Source of the DNA: Minisyncoccota bacterium
GTDB taxonomy: Bacteria > Patescibacteriota > Minisyncoccia > Minisyncoccales > JAGOPM01
Direction: 5' to 3'
Length of the DNA: 64,000 nucleotides
Assembly: GCA_041651395.1 (NCBI GenBank)
Contig: JBAZJI010000001.1
Location: 763,920 to 827,919 of the forward strand
Shown: one piece after another, positions 2,583-58,966 of the stretch
Layout: every line of letters starts with the position of its first letter
How positions within the stretch are numbered: the first letter of the stretch is position 1
The notes under the pieces: generated by a model
Seen by the model: the letters and a program-made list of their open reading frames with translations, nothing else
Database searches by the model: none
What the model was told of the DNA's origin: nothing
Program-made: the position numbers and the translations under genes

Positions 2583-2663
2583 GCTGTTTGCATTATAGCG
2601 ACTTAACCAAATAATTAAAGGCAGCCCCGCAAATAAAATTGTCCCTTTTAGGGGGCAGTTTTA

Positions 2664-3125
2664 TTACTGTGGTTGGGGCGCATTTGGCTGCGGCTCCTGG
2701 TCTTGGGGGCCGCGGCCTGGCCCGAGGGCGCCATCGCGCAGCTGCACGGTTTGGGCAGCAATGCTGCCATCGGCATTAGCTGTGCCCATCACGGTTATAT
2801 TGGCACCTTGAACCACATCACTTATTGAACCCGTAGACATTTTGCCCACGGTCGTTTTTTCAGAAATAAAAATAATTTTAGAACCGCCATCGCGTAATTT
2901 TACCGTCAAACTTTTATCATCTTTAGAAATCACCTCGCCACTTACAAATCCGCCATTTTGACCATTACCATTTTGGCGACTACCCATGCGCTGACCATGG
3001 AAGTCACCGGGCATATTGGCAAATCCCCTCTTCTGATTGGAAGAGTATTGCATGCCAGTATAAAAAGAACCGACACCAACTAAAACCACTAGCCCTGCCG
3101 CTATCGCAATATTTTTTGTATTCAT
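2664..3125 (-). CDS. secreted beta-rich protein (DUF5666-like, tentative), last gene of the efflux operon
   Basis: 153 aa with an N-terminal signal/TM, a repeated G..V.....ITV pattern and a Pro/Gln-rich tail. It resembles the ORF at 6852-7322. Confidence 0.45.
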   Translation of the reverse strand: MNTKNIAIAAGLVVLVGVGSFYTGMQYSSNQKRGFANMPGDFHGQRMGSRQNGNGQNGGFVSGEVISKDDKSLTVKLRDGGSKIIFISEKTTVGKMSTGSISDVVQGANITVMGTANADGSIAAQTVQLRDGALGPGRGPQDQEPQPNAPQPQ

Positions 3126-3143
3126 ATTTTATTTATTAATTAA

Positions 3144-4367
3144 TTATTCGTATCTCAAAGCCTCTATTGGATTAAGCGAAGCAGCACGCTGCGCCGGATA
3201 ATAGCCAAAAGCAATGCCAATGCCTGCTGAAACTCCGAAAGCCAAAAGTACCGATTCAAAAGAAATTTTTGTGGCGATGCCACCAAAAACAGAAATACCG
3301 ACAGAGATAAGCCAACCAACAAAAACACCCAAAAGCCCGCCAACAACCGTAAGCATGATAGACTCTGCTAAAAACTGCAGGCTGATTTCTTTTTTCTTGG
3401 CGCCCACAGCTTTGCGCAAGCCGATTTCGCGCGTACGCTCTGTCACTGTAGTAAGCATCATATTCATAATGCCAATACCTCCCACTAAAAGCGAAATGGC
3501 AGCCACGGAACCTAAAAGCAATGTGAAAGTATTGGTAATCGAGGAGGCAGCCGAAGCAATATCGGCTTGATTAACCGTGCTAAAATCTGCCAAAGTCGGA
3601 TCGGCAATATTATGCCGAGAAAGCAAAAGCGAAGTTATTTCCTCCTGCATAGCCACCATGGATTGCTGGTCAACCGCCTGCACGCCAATAGTGGAAACAT
3701 ATTTGCTTCCGGTCAAAAATTGCTGCGCCGAAGTCAGAGGAATATAAATCATATCGTCTTGATTATTAAACCCGCTGCCACCTTTGGATTTAGTCACTCC
3801 GATAATTGTAAAATCAATTGATTTTATCGTGACGGTCTGACCTATTGGGTCAACTCCTTCGCCGAAAAGATCATCACGCGTCGCCGGGCCCAAAACCGCC
3901 ACTTTGGCCATAGAATCGACATGTTGAGCGGTAATAAACGAGCCGGAATCGATTTCTACATTACGCACCGCCGGATAAGTTTGGGTCACGCCGACAACGG
4001 AAGTATTCGTATTGGTCCCTTTGGCCACAACTTGACTGCGAACTGAAAGCTCAGGAGAAACTTCTTGGACTGTATAAATTCCCTCTTTGATGGCTTGCGC
4101 GTCTTCTAGGGTTAAAGACTGGGCCGAGCCACGGCCTTGGCTCACTTGATAACCCGGGCCGCGCTGCATGCTAGGCATAACCAAAACCAAATTGGAGCCC
4201 AAAGATTGGATGCGAGATTCAATACTGCTCTGCGAGCCAGCCCCAACAGCAATCATAGAGATAACTGAAGCAATACCAATGACAATACCCAAAACCGTCA
4301 GCCCCGAGCGGGCCTTATTGGCCAAAAGCGCAAAATATATTTCTTCTATTAGATCGGATATTTTCAT
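3144..4367 (-). CDS. ABC transporter permease, MacB/FtsX family
   Basis: 407 aa with an N-terminal TM, a large periplasmic domain and a C-terminal FtsX-type 3-TM bundle (REIGLRKAVGA motif). Adjacent to the ATPase. Confidence 0.9.
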   Translation of the reverse strand: MKISDLIEEIYFALLANKARSGLTVLGIVIGIASVISMIAVGAGSQSSIESRIQSLGSNLVLVMPSMQRGPGYQVSQGRGSAQSLTLEDAQAIKEGIYTVQEVSPELSVRSQVVAKGTNTNTSVVGVTQTYPAVRNVEIDSGSFITAQHVDSMAKVAVLGPATRDDLFGEGVDPIGQTVTIKSIDFTIIGVTKSKGGSGFNNQDDMIYIPLTSAQQFLTGSKYVSTIGVQAVDQQSMVAMQEEITSLLLSRHNIADPTLADFSTVNQADIASAASSITNTFTLLLGSVAAISLLVGGIGIMNMMLTTVTERTREIGLRKAVGAKKKEISLQFLAESIMLTVVGGLLGVFVGWLISVGISVFGGIATKISFESVLLAFGVSAGIGIAFGYYPAQRAASLNPIEALRYE

Positions 4368-4370
4368 GGC

Positions 4371-5054
4371 TTATTTTTTCTTTTTGTCTTCTACAATTTG
4401 CCCATCTCTTATAACTATCATGCGGTCAGCAAATTCAGCCACATCCTTTTCATGGGTAATTAAAATAATAGTCCTCTTCTGTTTTTCATTGAGCTCGCGA
4501 AAAGACTCCAAAACAACTTGGCCGGTCTTAGTATCTAAATTTCCCGTTGGCTCATCGGCCAAAATTATCGAGGGATTATTAACCAGGGCTCGGGCAATGG
4601 CTACACGCTGCATTTGGCCACCCGAAAGCTGATTGGAAAGATGATTAAAATGCTCCTTATCCAGACCCGCATATTTTAGTGATTGAACGGCCCTCTCTTT
4701 GCGGTTTTGGGATGGCACCCCGTCATAAATCAATGGCATCATAACGTTACGCAAAACCGTGGCCCGGGGCAAAAGATTAAAAGATTGAAAAACAAAGCCA
4801 ATCTTGTTTTTGCGGATGTCAGCCAATTCGTCATCGGAAAGTTTGGAAACATCTTGGCCATCCAAAAAATACTGGCCACTGCTGGGAGTGTCTAAAGCTC
4901 CAAGCACATGCATCAAGGTAGATTTGCCCGAACCCGACGGCCCAGTAATGGCGACAAATTCCCCGTCTTTAATCTTGAAACTGACCCCTTTAAGCGCTTG
5001 AGTCTGCACGTCGCCAGATTGATATATTTTAATTATATTCTTGCACTCAATCAT
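4371..5054 (-). CDS. ABC transporter ATP-binding protein (MacB/LolD type)
   Basis: Walker A GPSGSGKST, ABC signature LSGGQMQRVAIARAL, Walker B ILADEPTGNLD. Confidence 0.95.
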   Translation of the reverse strand: MIECKNIIKIYQSGDVQTQALKGVSFKIKDGEFVAITGPSGSGKSTLMHVLGALDTPSSGQYFLDGQDVSKLSDDELADIRKNKIGFVFQSFNLLPRATVLRNVMMPLIYDGVPSQNRKERAVQSLKYAGLDKEHFNHLSNQLSGGQMQRVAIARALVNNPSIILADEPTGNLDTKTGQVVLESFRELNEKQKRTIILITHEKDVAEFADRMIVIRDGQIVEDKKKK

Positions 5055-9699: not shown

Positions 9700-9865
9700 A
9701 TAAGAAAATTACCCTGAAAAGAAAAATAAAAATGCCCAAAGTGTTTTTTATTTTTCTCTGCTCCAGATACTATAAGACAAAAAGGTGCAAAAACCCTGTT
9801 TTTTGTATTGCATTCCAAAACATTTTATATATAATAAATTCATCAATTCCAAAAAAACTAAATAT

Positions 9866-10897
9866 ATGAGTAAGAAAGCAATTTTGAAAGAGACTATCAA
9901 CCATATTGATATTAAATCTTTCAACGCGATCCCGATCGTGGATCAATTCAACGACATGGCATTTTCTGCCAGAACGTTGGCCAGAGCGTCGTATATCTAC
10001 GACGACATGATTAAGGACAAAAAATGTTCTATTTTTTTATGCCTAGCCGGCTCTTTGATTAGCGCCGGGCTAAAAGCCGCTATTTATGATCTGCTAAAAA
10101 ATAATATGATCGACGCCATCATCTCTACCGGCGCCAATATTGTCGACCAGGATTTTTTTGAAGGTTTGGGTTATAGGCATTACAAAGGCGACATCTTTGC
10201 TAATGACGATGCTCTCATGAAACAAAATATTGATCGCATTTACGATACTTACATTGATGAGGACGAATTATTACACTGTGACGCCACGGTCGCCAAAATC
10301 GCCCAGGAACTTGAACCGCGCCCCTACTCTTCCCGCGAGTTTATTGCACAAATGGGCAAATATTTGAAGAAAAATAATTTGGGTAAAGATTCCATCGTTC
10401 GCTTAGCTTACGAAAAAAATGTCCCGATTTTTGTCCCGGCTTTTTCTGATTGCAGCGCCGGCTTGGGCCTGGCCAATTACCAGCACAAAATGGGAAGCAA
10501 GCCCAAAGTCACCATCGATTCCGTCCAAGACTTTTTGGAGCTTACAAAGATAAAAATTGCCGCTGGCGAGACTGGCCTTTTCATGCTCGCCGGAGGAGTG
10601 CCAAAAAATTTTGCCCAAGACACAACGGTAATGGCAGAAATTTTGACTGAAAAAGAGGCCAAGCTCCACAAGTACGCCGTACAGATAACCGTAGCTGATG
10701 AGCGCGACGGCGCGCTCTCCGGATCCACTTTGCGCGAAGCCCATTCCTGGGGCAAAGTCGGCGAGGAAAATGAACAGATGGTCTATGCCGAAGCGACTAT
10801 GGCCTTCCCTCTCATTGCCAGCTATGTTTACCACAAAAAAAATTGGAAAGACCGCGAACCTAAAAATTACGGCAAAATTTTCAATACAAAAAAATAA
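9866..10897 (+). CDS. deoxyhypusine synthase-like protein (DHS / homospermidine-synthase superfamily)
   Basis: The start was moved to MSKKAILK at 9866. STGANIVDQD motif, plus C-terminal GSTLREAHSWGK matching the DHS catalytic-Lys motif (E..SWGK). Confidence 0.85.
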   Translation: MSKKAILKETINHIDIKSFNAIPIVDQFNDMAFSARTLARASYIYDDMIKDKKCSIFLCLAGSLISAGLKAAIYDLLKNNMIDAIISTGANIVDQDFFEGLGYRHYKGDIFANDDALMKQNIDRIYDTYIDEDELLHCDATVAKIAQELEPRPYSSREFIAQMGKYLKKNNLGKDSIVRLAYEKNVPIFVPAFSDCSAGLGLANYQHKMGSKPKVTIDSVQDFLELTKIKIAAGETGLFMLAGGVPKNFAQDTTVMAEILTEKEAKLHKYAVQITVADERDGALSGSTLREAHSWGKVGEENEQMVYAEATMAFPLIASYVYHKKNWKDREPKNYGKIFNTKK

Positions 10898-24776: not shown

Positions 24777-24788
24777 CTCCAAAGGAAA

Positions 24789-24812
24789 ATCGCACGACTG
24801 GTGCGATTTTTT
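24789..24812 (+). terminator. terminator after tRNA-Ser(GCU)
   Basis: ATCGCAC GACTG GTGCGAT followed by a T6 tract. Confidence 0.8.
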
Positions 24813-24842
24813 CTTTGGCGGACTTGATAGAAGGGATTCGAA

Positions 24843-24885
24843 GTTTATACTGGCCGAGCTAGCAAGCGAGGGCAGTAAATGCCTC
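24843..24885. repeat. 43-nt direct repeat, copy 1
   Basis: GTTTATACTGGCCGAGCTAGCAAGCGAGGGCAGTAAATGCCTC, identical to 24949-24991. Confidence 0.95.
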
Positions 24886-24948
24886 CCCTACATTAATTCA
24901 ACTGAGGGAAACGAATCCCAAATTCGAACTTGTCTACCGTCAGACAGG

Positions 24949-24991
24949 GTTTATACTGGCCGAGCTAGCAAGCGAGGGCAGTAAATGCCTC
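24949..24991. repeat. 43-nt direct repeat, copy 2
   Basis: Perfect copy of 24843-24885 (period 106 nt), 55 nt upstream of the SemiSWEET start codon. Confidence 0.95.
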
Positions 24992-25045
24992 ACGCTCTTT
25001 TGACCAAAACACAATTACTCTTATAATTGATTAGCAACCAAAATC

Positions 25046-34827: not shown

Positions 34828-34902
34828 GTATGGTTAAGAAATTGAAGGCGGAGACGGAGTAGAACCTTCGGCTCAATACAGGACATTCTTGTTTCTTTAA
34901 CT

Positions 34903-43320: not shown

Positions 43321-43395
43321 GGGCGTATAGCTCAGTGGTAGAGCACAGCTCTTATAAAGCTGTGGCCGATGGTTCGATCCCATCTACGCCCACCA
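43321..43395 (+). tRNA. tRNA-Ile (anticodon UAU), CCA encoded
   Basis: GGGCGTA TA GCTC AGTGGTA GAGC A CAGCT CTTATAA AGCTG .. GATGG TTCGATC CCATC TACGCCC A CCA. The anticodon loop reads UAU. Confidence 0.85.
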
Positions 43396-44211: not shown

Positions 44212-44598
44212 ATGTTGACCAAAGCAGACAAATTCATAGCCGCCCACAAAAAGGAAACTACCCCGGACATTATGCCCGGCGATAACGTTCGCGTTATCCA
44301 AAAATTTAAGGAGGGCAGCAAAGACAAAACCCAACCCTTCGAAGGCAAAGTTTTGGCTATCAAGCACAACAAAGAAATCGGTGGTACTTTTACCGTACGC
44401 GCCGAAATCGATGGTGTTGGCGTTGAAAAAATCTTCCCTATCCACTCTCCAGCCATTGAAAGTATTACTGTCTTGGAGAGGTTTATAACTAGAAGGGCGA
44501 AGGTTTATTACTTGCGCGATGCCAAAGGCAAGAGGGCTAGGCTTAAAAAACATCCTAAACAGCCTATCTCTGTTGCCAAGACCGCTAAAAACGAATAA
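44212..44598 (+). CDS. rplS: 50S ribosomal protein L19
   Basis: PGDNVRVIQKFKEG...FEGKVLAIKH....TFTVR...GVGVEKIFPIHSP..ESI.V, the canonical L19 pattern. Confidence 0.95.
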   Translation: MLTKADKFIAAHKKETTPDIMPGDNVRVIQKFKEGSKDKTQPFEGKVLAIKHNKEIGGTFTVRAEIDGVGVEKIFPIHSPAIESITVLERFITRRAKVYYLRDAKGKRARLKKHPKQPISVAKTAKNE

Positions 44599-44638
44599 AA
44601 TAATCTCATTAGCCGCGCCCTAAATTGGGGCGCGCATT

Positions 44639-44722
44639 GCCCAGGTGGTGAAATTGGCATACACGCTACCTTGAGGTGGTAGAGCCAGTAATGGCGTGGA
44701 GGTTCGAGTCCTCTCCTGGGCA
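44639..44722 (+). tRNA. tRNA-Leu (anticodon GAG)
   Basis: Acceptor GCCCAGG/CCTGGGC, anticodon stem CTACC/GGTAG, loop TTGAGGT, long variable arm. Confidence 0.85.
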
Positions 44723-44732
44723 CAGGCTCACT

Positions 44733-44806
44733 GGACGATTAGCTCAGTTGGCCAGAGCGCATCATTTACACTGATGAGGTCGCAGGTTCGAGCCCTGCAT
44801 CGTCCA
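44733..44806 (+). tRNA. tRNA-Val (anticodon UAC)
   Basis: GGACGAT..GCTCAGTTGGCCAGAGC..CATCA TTTACAC TGATG..GCAGG TTCGAGC CCTGC ATCGTCC A. Confidence 0.9.
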
Positions 44807-44914
44807 CAGGCAAAAGGGCGAGCATCGAGCCCTACCCTGCATCATTAGATGAATAAGTCATAATGTCTTATTCCCTCTTTTCAAGCATATAGTTTTTCTG
44901 TTAGAATACCGTAC

Positions 44915-44991
44915 GCCTCGGTAGCTCAGTGGTAGAGCGTTCCGCTGAAAACGGAAAGGTTTCGATGGTTCGATTCCATTCCGAGGCACCA
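44915..44991 (+). tRNA. tRNA-Phe (anticodon GAA), CCA encoded
   Basis: Acceptor GCCTCGG/CCGAGGC, anticodon stem TTCCG/CGGAA, loop CTGAAAA. By my fold the variable region is 7 nt. Confidence 0.85.
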
Positions 44992-44995
44992 GAAT

Positions 44996-45070
44996 GCGGG
45001 TGTCGTATAGTGGCTATTACACATCCTTGCCATGGATGAGACGAGGGTTCGATTCCCTTCACCCGCTCCA
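44996..45070 (+). tRNA. tRNA-Gly (anticodon GCC), CCA encoded
   Basis: Acceptor GCGGGTG/CACCCGC, anticodon stem CATCC/GGATG, loop TTGCCAT, T-arm GAGGG TTCGATT CCCTT, discriminator U. Confidence 0.9.
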
Positions 45071-45099
45071 AGAAAAAATGCCCCGCAAGGGGTGTTTTT
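45056..45099 (+). repeat. 44-nt direct repeat, copy 1 (tRNA-Gly 3' end plus its terminator)
   Basis: CCTTCACCCGCTCCAAGAAAAAATGCCCCGCAAGGGGTGTTTTT, identical to 45221-45264. Confidence 0.95.
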
Positions 45100-45118
45100 T
45101 GTTGGTTTGATTAGTGTT

Positions 45119-45264
45119 GAAGGGAATCGAAGGCGGAGCCGCGACTGGCGGCGAGCCGGGCCCTGAGGCAAAGTCACCAGACTTTGACCGAAGGGCGATT
45201 CTCCGCCGCAGGCGGACAGGCCTTCACCCGCTCCAAGAAAAAATGCCCCGCAAGGGGTGTTTTT
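45119..45264 (+). ncRNA. candidate structured RNA / tRNA-trailer module (uncharacterised)
   Basis: GC-rich and hairpin-dense: GGCGGAG 45132-38 with CTCCGCC 45201-07; CCGC/GCGG 45139-51; CAAAGTC/GACTTTG 45169-86. It ends in a copy of the tRNA-Gly 3' end plus an intrinsic terminator. There is no expression evidence. Confidence 0.3.
45221..45264 (+). repeat. 44-nt direct repeat, copy 2
   Basis: Perfect copy of 45056-45099, 165 nt downstream. Confidence 0.95.
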
Positions 45265-45332
45265 ATTGCAATAGGCCCCGCCGAAACATCCCCTCAAACC
45301 AACCCTTATTTTCCAAGGGTTTTTTAGGGTCA

Positions 45333-45389
45333 AAAAAGCCTTATTTTACGTGGTTTTTGCCGAAAAAGCCTTATTTTACAATGGTTTTT
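45333..45389 (+). repeat. tandem direct repeat (2 units, period 30) upstream of the 3D-domain gene
   Basis: AAAAAGCCTTATTTTACGTGGTTTTT followed by AAAAAGCCTTATTTTACAATGGTTTTT. Confidence 0.85.
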
Positions 45390-45471
45390 TGAAAATGACC
45401 GCTTGACAAAAGCCCAAAAATTTGCTAACATTATAGTATAATTTCGTCCGAAAGGATGATTTTTATTTATT

Positions 45472-45942
45472 ATGAGTTTACGCAGTATTATTACACTTTT
45501 GATTGTTTGCGCCGCAGCTATCTGCTTCGATCCCATGATGTTTATCACGGCATCAGAAAAAGATAATTACGCCGCCTCAACGAGCGAGTTAAGCCTGCCA
45601 AACTTCCCCATGCTACAGGGAAACTCTTTGTTTGCCTTAAGCCGCAAAGTAGTCAAAAAAATAAAAGTAACCGTAACGGCCTATTCCTCTACGGTCGAAG
45701 AATGTGATAATTCCCCTTTTGTGACCGCCACGGGTAATTATGTGCGCGAAGGTATTGTTGCCGCTAATTTCGTCCCTTTTGGAACTAGGATCAGGATCCC
45801 GGAAGTCTTCGGCGATAAAGAATTCATTGTTGATGACAGAATGCATCCGCGCAACAAGAAAAATATTGATATCTGGATGCCTTCCAAAGCGCTTGCCATG
45901 GAATTTGGAAAAAAATATACTTATATTGAAGTTTTAGACTGA
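45472..45942 (+). CDS. 3D (Asp-Asp-Asp) domain protein, MltA/RlpA-like double-psi beta-barrel, secreted
   Basis: Signal peptide, then VTVTAYSS....CDNSPFVTATG......GIVAAN..PFGTRIRIP..FG...F.V.DRM........IDIWM. Confidence 0.8.
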   Translation: MSLRSIITLLIVCAAAICFDPMMFITASEKDNYAASTSELSLPNFPMLQGNSLFALSRKVVKKIKVTVTAYSSTVEECDNSPFVTATGNYVREGIVAANFVPFGTRIRIPEVFGDKEFIVDDRMHPRNKKNIDIWMPSKALAMEFGKKYTYIEVLD

Positions 45943-52191: not shown

Positions 52192-52212
52192 TCTAGCGGA
52201 GGGGGTGGGATT
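52192..52212 (-). repeat. direct duplicate of the tRNA-Ser(CGA) 3' end
   Basis: TCTAGCGGAGGGGGTGGGATT is identical to 52309-52329, which covers the tRNA 3' T-stem, acceptor strand and 5 trailer nt. Period 117 nt. Confidence 0.95.
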
Positions 52213-52313
52213 CACTGCCAAATTCTGCTGAATTTGCCAGTACCTTGTTTCAAATCCCAGTCCATTTATTTCCGCTTTCAAGCAACTACGCCGGTCGCGC
52301 AGTTACTTTCTAG

Positions 52314-52400
52314 CGGAGGGGGTGGGATTTGAACCCACGATCGGGTTGCCCCGATACCGCATTTCGAGTGCGGCGCCTTCGGCCACTCAGCCACCCCTCC
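52314..52400 (-). tRNA. tRNA-Ser (anticodon CGA), no encoded CCA
   Basis: Reverse complement: GGAGGGG..CCGCA CTCGAAA TGCGG, long variable arm, GTGGG TTCAAAT CCCAC CCCCTCC G. Confidence 0.9.
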
Positions 52401-58696: not shown

Positions 58697-58720
58697 AAAA
58701 ACACGCCTAAGCGTGTTTTT
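58697..58720 (+). terminator. terminator after the htrA-like gene
   Basis: AAAAACACGC CTAA GCGTGTTTTT. Confidence 0.8.
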
Positions 58721-58723
58721 ATA

Positions 58724-58744
58724 TTGGGGTAGCTAACGGGAATC
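58724..58744 (-). repeat. degenerate direct duplicate of the tRNA-His 3' end
   Basis: TTGGGGTAGCTAACGGGAATC compared with TTGGGGTGGCTAACGGGATTC at 58891-58911 (19/21 match). Period 167 nt. Confidence 0.85.
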
Positions 58745-58864
58745 TCACGTCGTCCGCCAGACGGCGGACTCTTTCAAAACCCCCGGTTTTGAATAATTTC
58801 CAATACGGGGAGGATGAGGATGTCATCCTCCCCAACCCCCTCCTTTTCAAATCCCGTTGGTAAC

Positions 58865-58891: not shown

Positions 58892-58966
58892 TGGGGTGGC
58901 TAACGGGATTCGAACCCGTGCTAAGAGCTCCACAAACTCTTGTGCTGCCGCTACACCATAGCCACC
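58892..58966 (-). tRNA. tRNA-His (anticodon GUG) with encoded G-1 and CCA
   Basis: Reverse complement: G-GTGGCTA..AGAGT TTGTGGA GCTCT..ACGGG TTCGAAT CCCGT TAGCCAC C CCA. G-1 pairs with C73. Confidence 0.9.

Follow-up and report, generated by a model that had tools for sequence, protein, structure and literature searches.

The window analysed here is the whole 64,000-nucleotide (nt) stretch of contig JBAZJI010000001.1 from a Minisyncoccota bacterium, and positions refer to this window unless another locus is named. A Leu-Val-Phe-Gly tRNA array in the window ends with tRNA-Gly(GCC), whose 3' end is present twice, in two copies of a 44-nt direct repeat separated by a 121-nt insert. The original prediction, made from this sequence, took the arrangement for either a miniature element flanked by attL and attR or a small structured RNA. 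Both ideas survive in modified form, now joined by a family of copies, covarying helices, a repeat of the tRNA 3' end and empty sites. We think that the insert plus one repeat copy may well be a non-autonomous, structure-dependent insertion element targeting the tRNA T-loop in Patescibacteria, a reading on which our confidence is evenly divided. The unit consists of a spacer, a left arm, a ~65-nt core folded as a three-way junction and a copy of the tRNA 3' end, and tRNA-Gly(GCC) is its target or partner. The features of the locus are as follows.

44996-45070, + strand: tRNA-Gly(GCC) (ARAGORN; Rfam tRNA model, 61.2 bits)
45056-45099, + strand: first copy of the direct repeat (repeat search; 100% identity to the second copy)
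45100-45117, + strand: AT-rich spacer TGTTGGTTTGATTAGTGT (sequence inspection)
45118-45131, + strand: left arm TTCGATTCCCTTCA, the exact reverse complement of tRNA positions ~54-67
45202-45220, + strand: 19-nt insertion, a hairpin TCCGCC-GCA-GGCGGA plus CAGG, which splits the second tail copy between C61 and C62
45221-45264, + strand: second copy of the direct repeat, comprising the tRNA tail from C62 and a second terminator hairpin (repeat search)

The repeat, CCTTCACCCGCTCCAAGAAAAAATGCCCCGCAAGGGGTGTTTTT, is 100% identical at 45056-45099 and 45221-45264. As the original prediction had stated, its first copy holds the 3' part of the tRNA (the 3' strand of the T-stem, the 3' strand of the acceptor stem and CCA) and then an intrinsic-terminator-like hairpin (45073-45100). 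The TTGG of the spacer lengthens this hairpin onto the CCAA end of the tRNA, and in relatives, comparable hairpins of the spacer likewise pair with the 3' end of the tRNA. An inverted-repeat search returned the segment antisense to the T-loop and T-stem as TGAAGGGAATCGAA, 14 nt with 100% complementarity to tRNA bases 45048-45061; the segment is thus real and one base longer than had been claimed. The GC richness noted earlier is likewise borne out, as the insert reaches 59-64% against ~30-45% in the flanks, and it folds better than shuffled sequence (z = -4.15). It has, as foreseen, no coding capacity: the open reading frames (ORFs) that overlap it are spurious, and ARAGORN found no tRNA or tmRNA gene within it on either strand.

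When 45202-45220 are removed in silico, CGATTC is joined directly to CCTTCACCC, which restores the exact tRNA sequence. This 19-nt insertion is specific to the window copy. Its hairpin type, TCCGCC-loop-GGCGGA, occurs twice in the window, both times within elements trailing tRNAs, against an expectation of 0.05. At L242 (L numbers are our handles for loci and contigs), a tRNA-Gly-linked tail copy at 155-195 is broken by a GC-rich hairpin insertion of 34 nt, compared with 19 nt in the window, and both insertions lie at or near the boundary between T-stem and acceptor stem. In contig L003, which comes from an independent sample, the right end of the repeat lies exactly k-1 = 30 nt from the contig start. 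A de Bruijn graph must branch at this starting point, and the duplication is therefore not an assembly artefact.

The element family and its fold

An initial metagenome scan, with the invariant hairpin as the query, gave ~55 distinct low-GC copies with a common layout, in which the tRNA is followed by a spacer or terminator, a left arm antisense to T-loop positions 54-63, the core and a copy of the tRNA 3' end from ~C56. A search with R1, a covariance model built from an alignment of 29 copies, then found 75 copies in 60 loci (low-GC, Patescibacteria-type metagenome contigs), among them tandem copies, one nested copy and some without the exact search motif. The maximum density was seven copies in one 7.4-kb contig, and the window copy scored 87.6 bits against the model (E = 1.7e-23, 45121-45204). 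At L009, where the neighbouring 3D-domain protein is 61% identical, the construction occurs three times, once after tRNA-Leu(GAG) and twice after tRNA-Gly. Each of these copies has an antisense T-loop segment, a near-identical ~65-nt core with GGCGC-GACTG-GCGCC and the 3' end of its own tRNA from C56. The window core has this hairpin in common with L009, with a compensatory swap from G-C to C-G.

Searches beyond these contigs yielded little. In a 16-mer scan of genome contigs, nearly all of the 120 listed matches were chance hits in GC-rich genomes, with L123 the sole real copy among them, and viral contigs, phage records and plasmids gave no family match except one chance match to the hairpin. 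The Rfam comparison proposed with the original prediction was made with cmscan against Rfam 15 over 44400-45900, at E values up to 10, and gave no match on 45100-45220; no family was found on the element copies of 10 other loci, nor on those of 12 more at the gathering threshold. These scans returned tRNAs, rRNA, one group I intron and nothing else, so the clear Rfam match that the original prediction had named as grounds for another explanation was not seen. The families considered included hammerhead, hepatitis delta virus (HDV)-like, twister, twister-sister, pistol, hatchet, tRNA-like, Y-RNA-like, attC and HEARO. Inspection shows that neither a hammerhead junction nor an HDV-like double pseudoknot can be built from the conserved helices. 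No description of the arrangement of tRNA tail, arm and core turned up in literature searches. The copies therefore appear to represent a widespread and apparently undescribed family of ~83-nt folded elements of Patescibacteria.

Taken by itself, the window locus shows a normal, an inverted and again a normal T-loop copy, which is the outcome expected of two template switches. The locus could then be a neutral by-product of template switching at highly transcribed tRNA genes, leaving a duplication, an inverted segment and a duplication with no dedicated element. However, a ~65-nt core with invariant nucleotides and conserved helices recurs between the inverted and the direct copy in dozens of unrelated contigs, and rearrangements by chance would not bring in one structured sequence every time. 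The family has already largely refuted this explanation, and we consider it very improbable.

In the core, it is the tRNA-sense strand that forms the conserved fold. The parts of the core in the window copy are listed below.

45121-45204, + strand: family core, three-way junction (R1 model; covariation)
45122-45129 with 45196-45203, + strand: stem A, ~8 base pairs (bp), formed by the left arm and the beginning of the tail copy
45132-45134 with 45155-45157, + strand: stem B, 3 bp
45138-45142 with 45148-45152, + strand: hairpin C, 5 bp, loop GACTG at 45143-45147
45161-45164 with 45192-45195, + strand: stem D
45166-45175 with 45180-45190, + strand: hairpin E, bulged A at 45187, loop ACCA at 45176-45179, 7-bp upper stem

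Stem B, the internal loop (GGA/GA) and hairpin C with its GACUG loop are near-invariant across the family; stem D, a G-A-rich internal loop and hairpin E, with its bulged A and ANYA-type tetraloop, vary in sequence and are constant in pairing. In the 29-sequence alignment, 90.4% of cells are paired, compared to 68.5% after shuffling, and none of 500 shuffles reached the observed value; when the partners are slid, 33-45% of cells are paired. Among 65 distinct model-aligned copies, the figures are 92.3% and 61.2%, and double changes occur in 30 of the 30 pairs. RNAalifold, as an independent prediction, gave the same architecture. G-U or U-G combinations number 73 versus 17 of the A-C or C-A type, and this excess identifies the tRNA-sense strand as the folding strand. 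The fold is preserved by selection, and the folded strand may act as RNA or as single-stranded DNA.

Of four helices listed in the original prediction, all can be drawn from the sequence, but just two are retained across the family. CCGC/GCGG corresponds to the family helix GCCGC (45138-45142) with GCGGC (45148-45152), and CAAAGTC (45169-45175) with GACTTTG (45180-45186) is a family helix as well. The long-range pairing of GGCGGAG (45132-45138) with CTCCGCC (45201-45207) gives way to a local 3-bp stem, in which the family pairs GGC (45132-45134) with GCC (45155-45157). A switch-like alternative pairing of CCGCC with GGCGG had also been proposed. In fact, TCCGCC (45202-45207) and GGCGGA (45211-45216) form a 15-nt hairpin in this copy alone, and because this pairing sits within the 19-nt insertion unique to the window, no conserved switch is supported.

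Hairpin C has itself been exchanged. Copies at L140 (1814-1899) and L170 (6051-6135), both at tRNA-Leu(GAG), are identical except that the whole hairpin is GGCGC-GACTG-GCGCC in one form and GTCCGCC-ACG-GCGGAC in the other, which indicates gene conversion or module exchange between copies. The second copy at L140 has a TCCGCC-loop-GGCGGA hairpin in place of hairpin C.

Relation to the upstream tRNA and turnover

Some 35 distinct copies follow a tRNA at a distance of 30-120 nt, always in its orientation. The tRNAs with copies span at least 13 isotypes, namely Leu (five anticodons), Gly, Ser, Tyr, Trp, Val, Met, Glu, Arg, Ala, His, Asp and Thr. Whichever tRNA is upstream, the left arm matches its T-loop and the 3' strand of its T-stem, and the arm covaries with the variable bases of the T-loop: across from position 57, 12 sequences have C-G and 10 have U-A, and across from position 59, four pair types occur. 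Arm sequences vary with the local tRNA, no fixed terminal inverted repeats are common to all copies and the duplication length is not constant. With inverted arms of 7-23 nt, the copies are short, non-coding and multi-copy, in the manner of miniature inverted-repeat transposable elements (MITEs) and repetitive extragenic palindromic (REP) sequences.

The tail is a copy of the local tRNA's own 3' end, with a modal length of 21 nt (C56 to A76) and a range of 16-57 nt. It starts most often at C56, and at G52 or G53 in two copies. The original prediction had treated the 44-nt repeat as the edge of the element, and this does not carry over to relatives, where the copied tail begins at ~C56 and mostly ends at the tRNA 3' end (21 nt). 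Tails lack CCA where the tRNA gene lacks it (L009 and L183), and the window tail includes the terminator. The tail is therefore a DNA-level copy of the gene region, and on these same grounds we ruled out a retro-copy of mature tRNA. Because the tail is copied, the upstream tRNA stays intact.

Direct repeats of the tRNA 3' end, here 44 nt in the window and 16-57 nt in ~30 other copies, are also a mark of islands at tRNA genes. The unit might thus be the scar of a conventional site-specific integration, in which an integrase-carrying island entered the T-loop, with tRNA-tail repeats as attL and attR, and lost its interior, leaving its attR-proximal end as the core. A direct repeat running from the T-loop to or past the tRNA end is reportedly the classic signature of tRNA-integrating elements, a description attributed to Williams in 2002. 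Moreover, islands of large serine recombinases show tRNA 3' ends to be hot spots for insertion here, and at L241 ~640 nt including an ORF lie between tail copies. Yet one core occurs with tails from at least 13 different tRNAs, and each tail corresponds to the local tRNA. At L170 and L009, near-identical cores carry different tails, whereas a tail borne by attP would be fixed. The window duplication includes the host terminator (44/44 nt), as in a target duplication rather than an imported attP, and the helices covary freely, unlike double-stranded protein-binding arms. No integrase is linked to the element, and the kilobase-scale gaps at L225 and L242 are separate islands at the CCA end. Altogether, we regard such a scar as highly doubtful.

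The family is sporadic. Full copies follow three of the 17 window tRNAs (Gly, Ser-CGA and His), tRNA-Ser(GCT) has a degenerate copy and tRNA-Leu(TAG) a fragment. A comparison with relatives, which the original prediction had proposed, revealed empty tRNA-Gly sites in addition to the covarying helices. In L007 (neighbouring protein 87% identical) and L008 (56%), tRNA-Gly, its terminator and the same downstream flank are present with no element, and on alignment to these empty sites, the window has exactly one additional repeat copy plus 121 nt. Contigs L004-L006, from the same species as L007, start 30 nt before the end of the terminator, which suggests that some populations of this species also carry a duplication. 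Tandem growth is seen at L183, where three perfect 112-nt units follow tRNA-Ser. Besides the nested copy, one copy has no tail, and decayed copies occur at tRNA-Gly of L183 and at 24833-24919 in the window.

Copies also occur away from tRNAs. These form a second group with 12-23-bp arms, of which L123, located between convergent genes, is one example, and L132 and L229, whose arms covary between loci, are others. In one non-tRNA subtype alone, visual inspection suggested a 5-6-nt flank repeat, GAGCG(A). At L157, a copy (10258-10336) lies antisense within an insertion in a 16S rRNA gene, with a group I intron core (9810-10186) ~70 nt away. A link to the group I introns described in PMC13011429 was rejected as unrelated, as those introns lie at position 35/36, in the anticodon loop.

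The remaining elements in the window are listed below.

52192-52260, - strand: second, variant element after tRNA-Ser(CGA) (52313-52400, -); R1 19.7 bits, E = 0.0018
58725-58856, - strand: third element, after tRNA-His (58892-58965, -), with a different core and the same architecture
24833-24919, + strand: degenerate relative after tRNA-Ser(GCT), with an antisense T-loop arm at 24833-24842 and CGAATCCC at 24912-24919

The Ser(CGA) element has its left arm CTGGGATTTGAA at 52260-52249, an E-type hairpin with a CAGCAG loop and a 21-nt tail copy at 52212-52192. It has no B/C arm, and a hairpin-C-like GCGCGACCGGCG lies upstream in the spacer, at ~52283-52303. The His element, which extends over 58697-58856 with its own terminator, has a left arm at 58856-58846, a hairpin TCCGCC-GTCT-GGCGGA at 58768-58753, a tail copy at 58744-58725 with two mismatches and a core of ~100 nt; its arm pairs better with the tRNA than with the tail copy. 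A different core in the same arm-and-tail architecture is also found after tRNA-Ile at L247. The degenerate relative has no copy of the acceptor strand. Its surroundings (24778-24993) contain a 43-nt direct repeat (24843-24885 and 24951-24993), and the terminator hairpin of tRNA-Ser(GCT) has a CGACTGG loop resembling family hairpin C. After tRNA-Leu(TAG), the fragment TTGAAGGCGGAG stands alone at 34842-34853.

The neighbours of the tRNA-Gly locus are a pseudouridine synthase, protein L19, the 3D-domain protein and a sigma factor. The 3D-domain gene has a promoter directly preceded, at 45301-45390, by three repeats of the form GCCTTATTTTAC..GGGTTTT, with start-to-start spacings of 35 and 30 nt; they are conserved in L004, L007 and L009, and may be binding sites or stacked terminators. 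ARAGORN also called a tRNA-Ile with anticodon TAT at 43321-43395. This tRNA is uncommon in bacteria, in which AUA is usually decoded by a modified CAT tRNA.

Insertion element or trailer RNA

We favour an insertion element because of the single-strand fold, the target-matched arm, the DNA-level tail, the sporadic, decaying and nested copies and the empty sites. In such an element, the left arm would serve as a target-matching guide, pairing with the T-loop region on the target or on the copied tail and thereby closing stem A. The target stretch duplicated on insertion would begin at a fixed T-loop position and end variably, at the tRNA end or past it, and the observed lengths would fit a fixed first break with a variable second break or a template switch. 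Copies shorter than 21 nt would truncate the tRNA and be removed by selection, which would account for the 21-nt mode. Recombination between repeated tails could then produce both tandem arrays and precise loss. The active single strand could be RNA or DNA, and the mobilising enzyme would not be encoded by the element.

The strongest alternative to be weighed is a functional small RNA or cis-acting 3' trailer of tRNA transcripts, with arm, core, tail and terminator transcribed by read-through or from a weak promoter. Such an RNA might protect or process the 3' end of the tRNA transcript, or present the single-stranded acceptor-3'-strand-CCA tail, borne by a folded scaffold, as a decoy or guide, and its antisense arm could pair with either the upstream tRNA or the tail copy, leaving room for a flip-flop. 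The strict co-orientation at a fixed short distance from the tRNA, the strong covariation and the G-U bias of the sense strand all agree with this, as does the left arm, in which G-U changes, and not exact copying, maintain the pairing (seven sequences have G-U at pair 6-85). The window unit ends in its own terminator copy, terminator-like hairpins following both tail copies. However, no sigma-70-like promoter site was found between the first terminator and the left arm (45100 to 45118). The element follows at most 5 of the 17 window tRNAs, even counting two degenerate cases, and is absent from the site in the closest relatives. The decay and truncation of copies, their tandem arrays and the nesting of one copy resemble the behaviour of selfish DNA, and neither the copies away from tRNAs, one of them antisense in a 16S rRNA gene, nor the different cores in one architecture would be expected of a trailer. 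We therefore judge a trailer RNA unlikely, although it is a genuine possibility.

Several observations also weigh against the insertion element. The tRNAs for Gly, Ser-CGA and Leu-TAA bear copies in several genomes, which speaks for a trailer RNA and also fits inheritance. The tail copy is mostly identical to the tRNA, and its acceptor part, which lies outside stem A, is usually still intact, which hints at constraint or ongoing conversion and likewise speaks for a trailer RNA. As L007 is a short-read contig, its empty site could result from the collapse of a repeat, and the identical cores at neighbouring tRNAs in L170 and L009 could reflect gene conversion rather than recent movement. No transposition chemistry known to us produces both a target duplication of 21-57 nt and an inverted copy of that target.

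Finally, no transposase, integrase or reverse transcriptase was linked to the element: when all ORFs within 4 kb of the copies were compared with one another, no neighbour recurred, and the matches that did recur were spurious ORFs overlapping the element itself. The 121-nt insert contains no integrase or recombinase within its bounding repeats. No TnpB, IscB or Cas gene is adjacent to the window locus, and no neighbour is common across loci.

One candidate was considered and rejected. At L225, tail copies stand 2.5 kb apart with a large serine recombinase between them (2583-5007). At every locus examined, members of this recombinase family lie directly against the CCA end of a tRNA-Ser, whether or not the element is there. 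At L225, the recombinase's island has its own CCGCCA boundaries, and the loci of its homologues contain no strong R1 match, so the recombinase is not the partner. Rather, the L225 island is nested between the tRNA and a pre-existing element, and L242 is analogous. The recombinase family is very widespread, with 7,941 proteins scored at E <= 1e-20, the best 120 of which are 68-95% identical to the query. At the loci examined (L249-L256), its genes are convergent with tRNA-Ser, at the edge of islands with restriction-modification and RadC genes. The L225 gene has 134-nt, 99% inverted repeats on both sides and is followed by a 636-nt imperfect palindrome.

Significance and known systems

Patescibacteria genomes are tiny and hold little non-essential DNA, and the family is still common, sometimes with several copies within a few kb. 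If mobile, the element inserts harmlessly beside essential tRNA genes by means of a target-matched arm and a long, tRNA-restoring duplication, and identifying its enzyme could open up novel chemistry of recombination or template switching as well as a principle of programmable targeting. If it is a functional RNA, it represents a new class of tRNA-linked non-coding RNA in a phylum whose RNA biology is almost unknown. The motif can be used in RNA family libraries, and it accounts for contig breaks and spurious ORFs beside tRNA genes.

Theta ribozymes, which are minimal HDV-like ribozymes, adjoin phage tRNAs (PMC10879173), and like our element, they are small structured RNAs directly downstream of tRNA genes and co-oriented with them. 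By contrast, the helices of the element are all nested in a three-way junction, with no HDV-like nested double pseudoknot, it matches no Rfam ribozyme and its hosts are Patescibacteria rather than phages. Theta ribozymes are not known to come with a tail duplication.

The element shares with tRNA-targeting integrative elements of the T-loop sublocation class, in which the repeats are attL and attR, the direct repeats of the tRNA 3' part starting in the T-loop, the intact tRNA, the tandem arrays at one tRNA and the possibility of precise loss by repeat recombination. It differs in having no integrase and a unit of only ~100-165 nt, in a tail that matches the local tRNA across at least 13 isotypes and in the antisense T-loop arm and covarying single-strand fold beside the distal repeat.

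MITEs, REP sequences and the bacterial interspersed mosaic elements (BIMEs) they form, and palindromes derived from IS200/IS605 are similarly short, non-coding, multi-copy, intergenic and hairpin-rich, with inverted arms. As in MITE and REP repeats, the structure is read on one strand and copies are decayed, nested or tandem. Unlike these repeats, the arms here are derived from or matched to the target tRNA instead of being fixed terminal repeats, the duplications (16-57 nt) far exceed ordinary target-site duplications and no RAYT or TnpA partner was seen.

The fourth comparison is with guide-carrying RNAs of mobile elements, namely group II introns with their exon- and intron-binding sites (EBS/IBS), the omega RNAs of TnpB and IscB, the bridge RNAs of IS110 and the homing CRISPR RNA (crRNA) of type V-K CRISPR-associated transposons (CAST), which is directed at tRNA genes. 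Presumably, the likeness lies in a scaffold with a short target-matching segment, here ~21 nt of target directly 3' of the scaffold, and in tRNA genes as safe-harbour targets. Here, however, there is no cognate protein gene, the scaffold is ~65 nt and the arm pairs in cis with the downstream flank, which would mask a guide. The family could be a new class of guide-bearing mobile nucleic acid, either RNA or single-stranded DNA. It would find tRNA genes by pairing of its left arm with the T-loop/T-stem strand, perhaps on the non-template strand displaced during the heavy transcription of these genes, and insert with a built-in tail copy, the junction acting as a catalytic RNA or as a handle for an enzyme of the host or the element. 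We offer this proposal as speculation that is unlikely, but with a real chance that the principle of targeting is new in kind.

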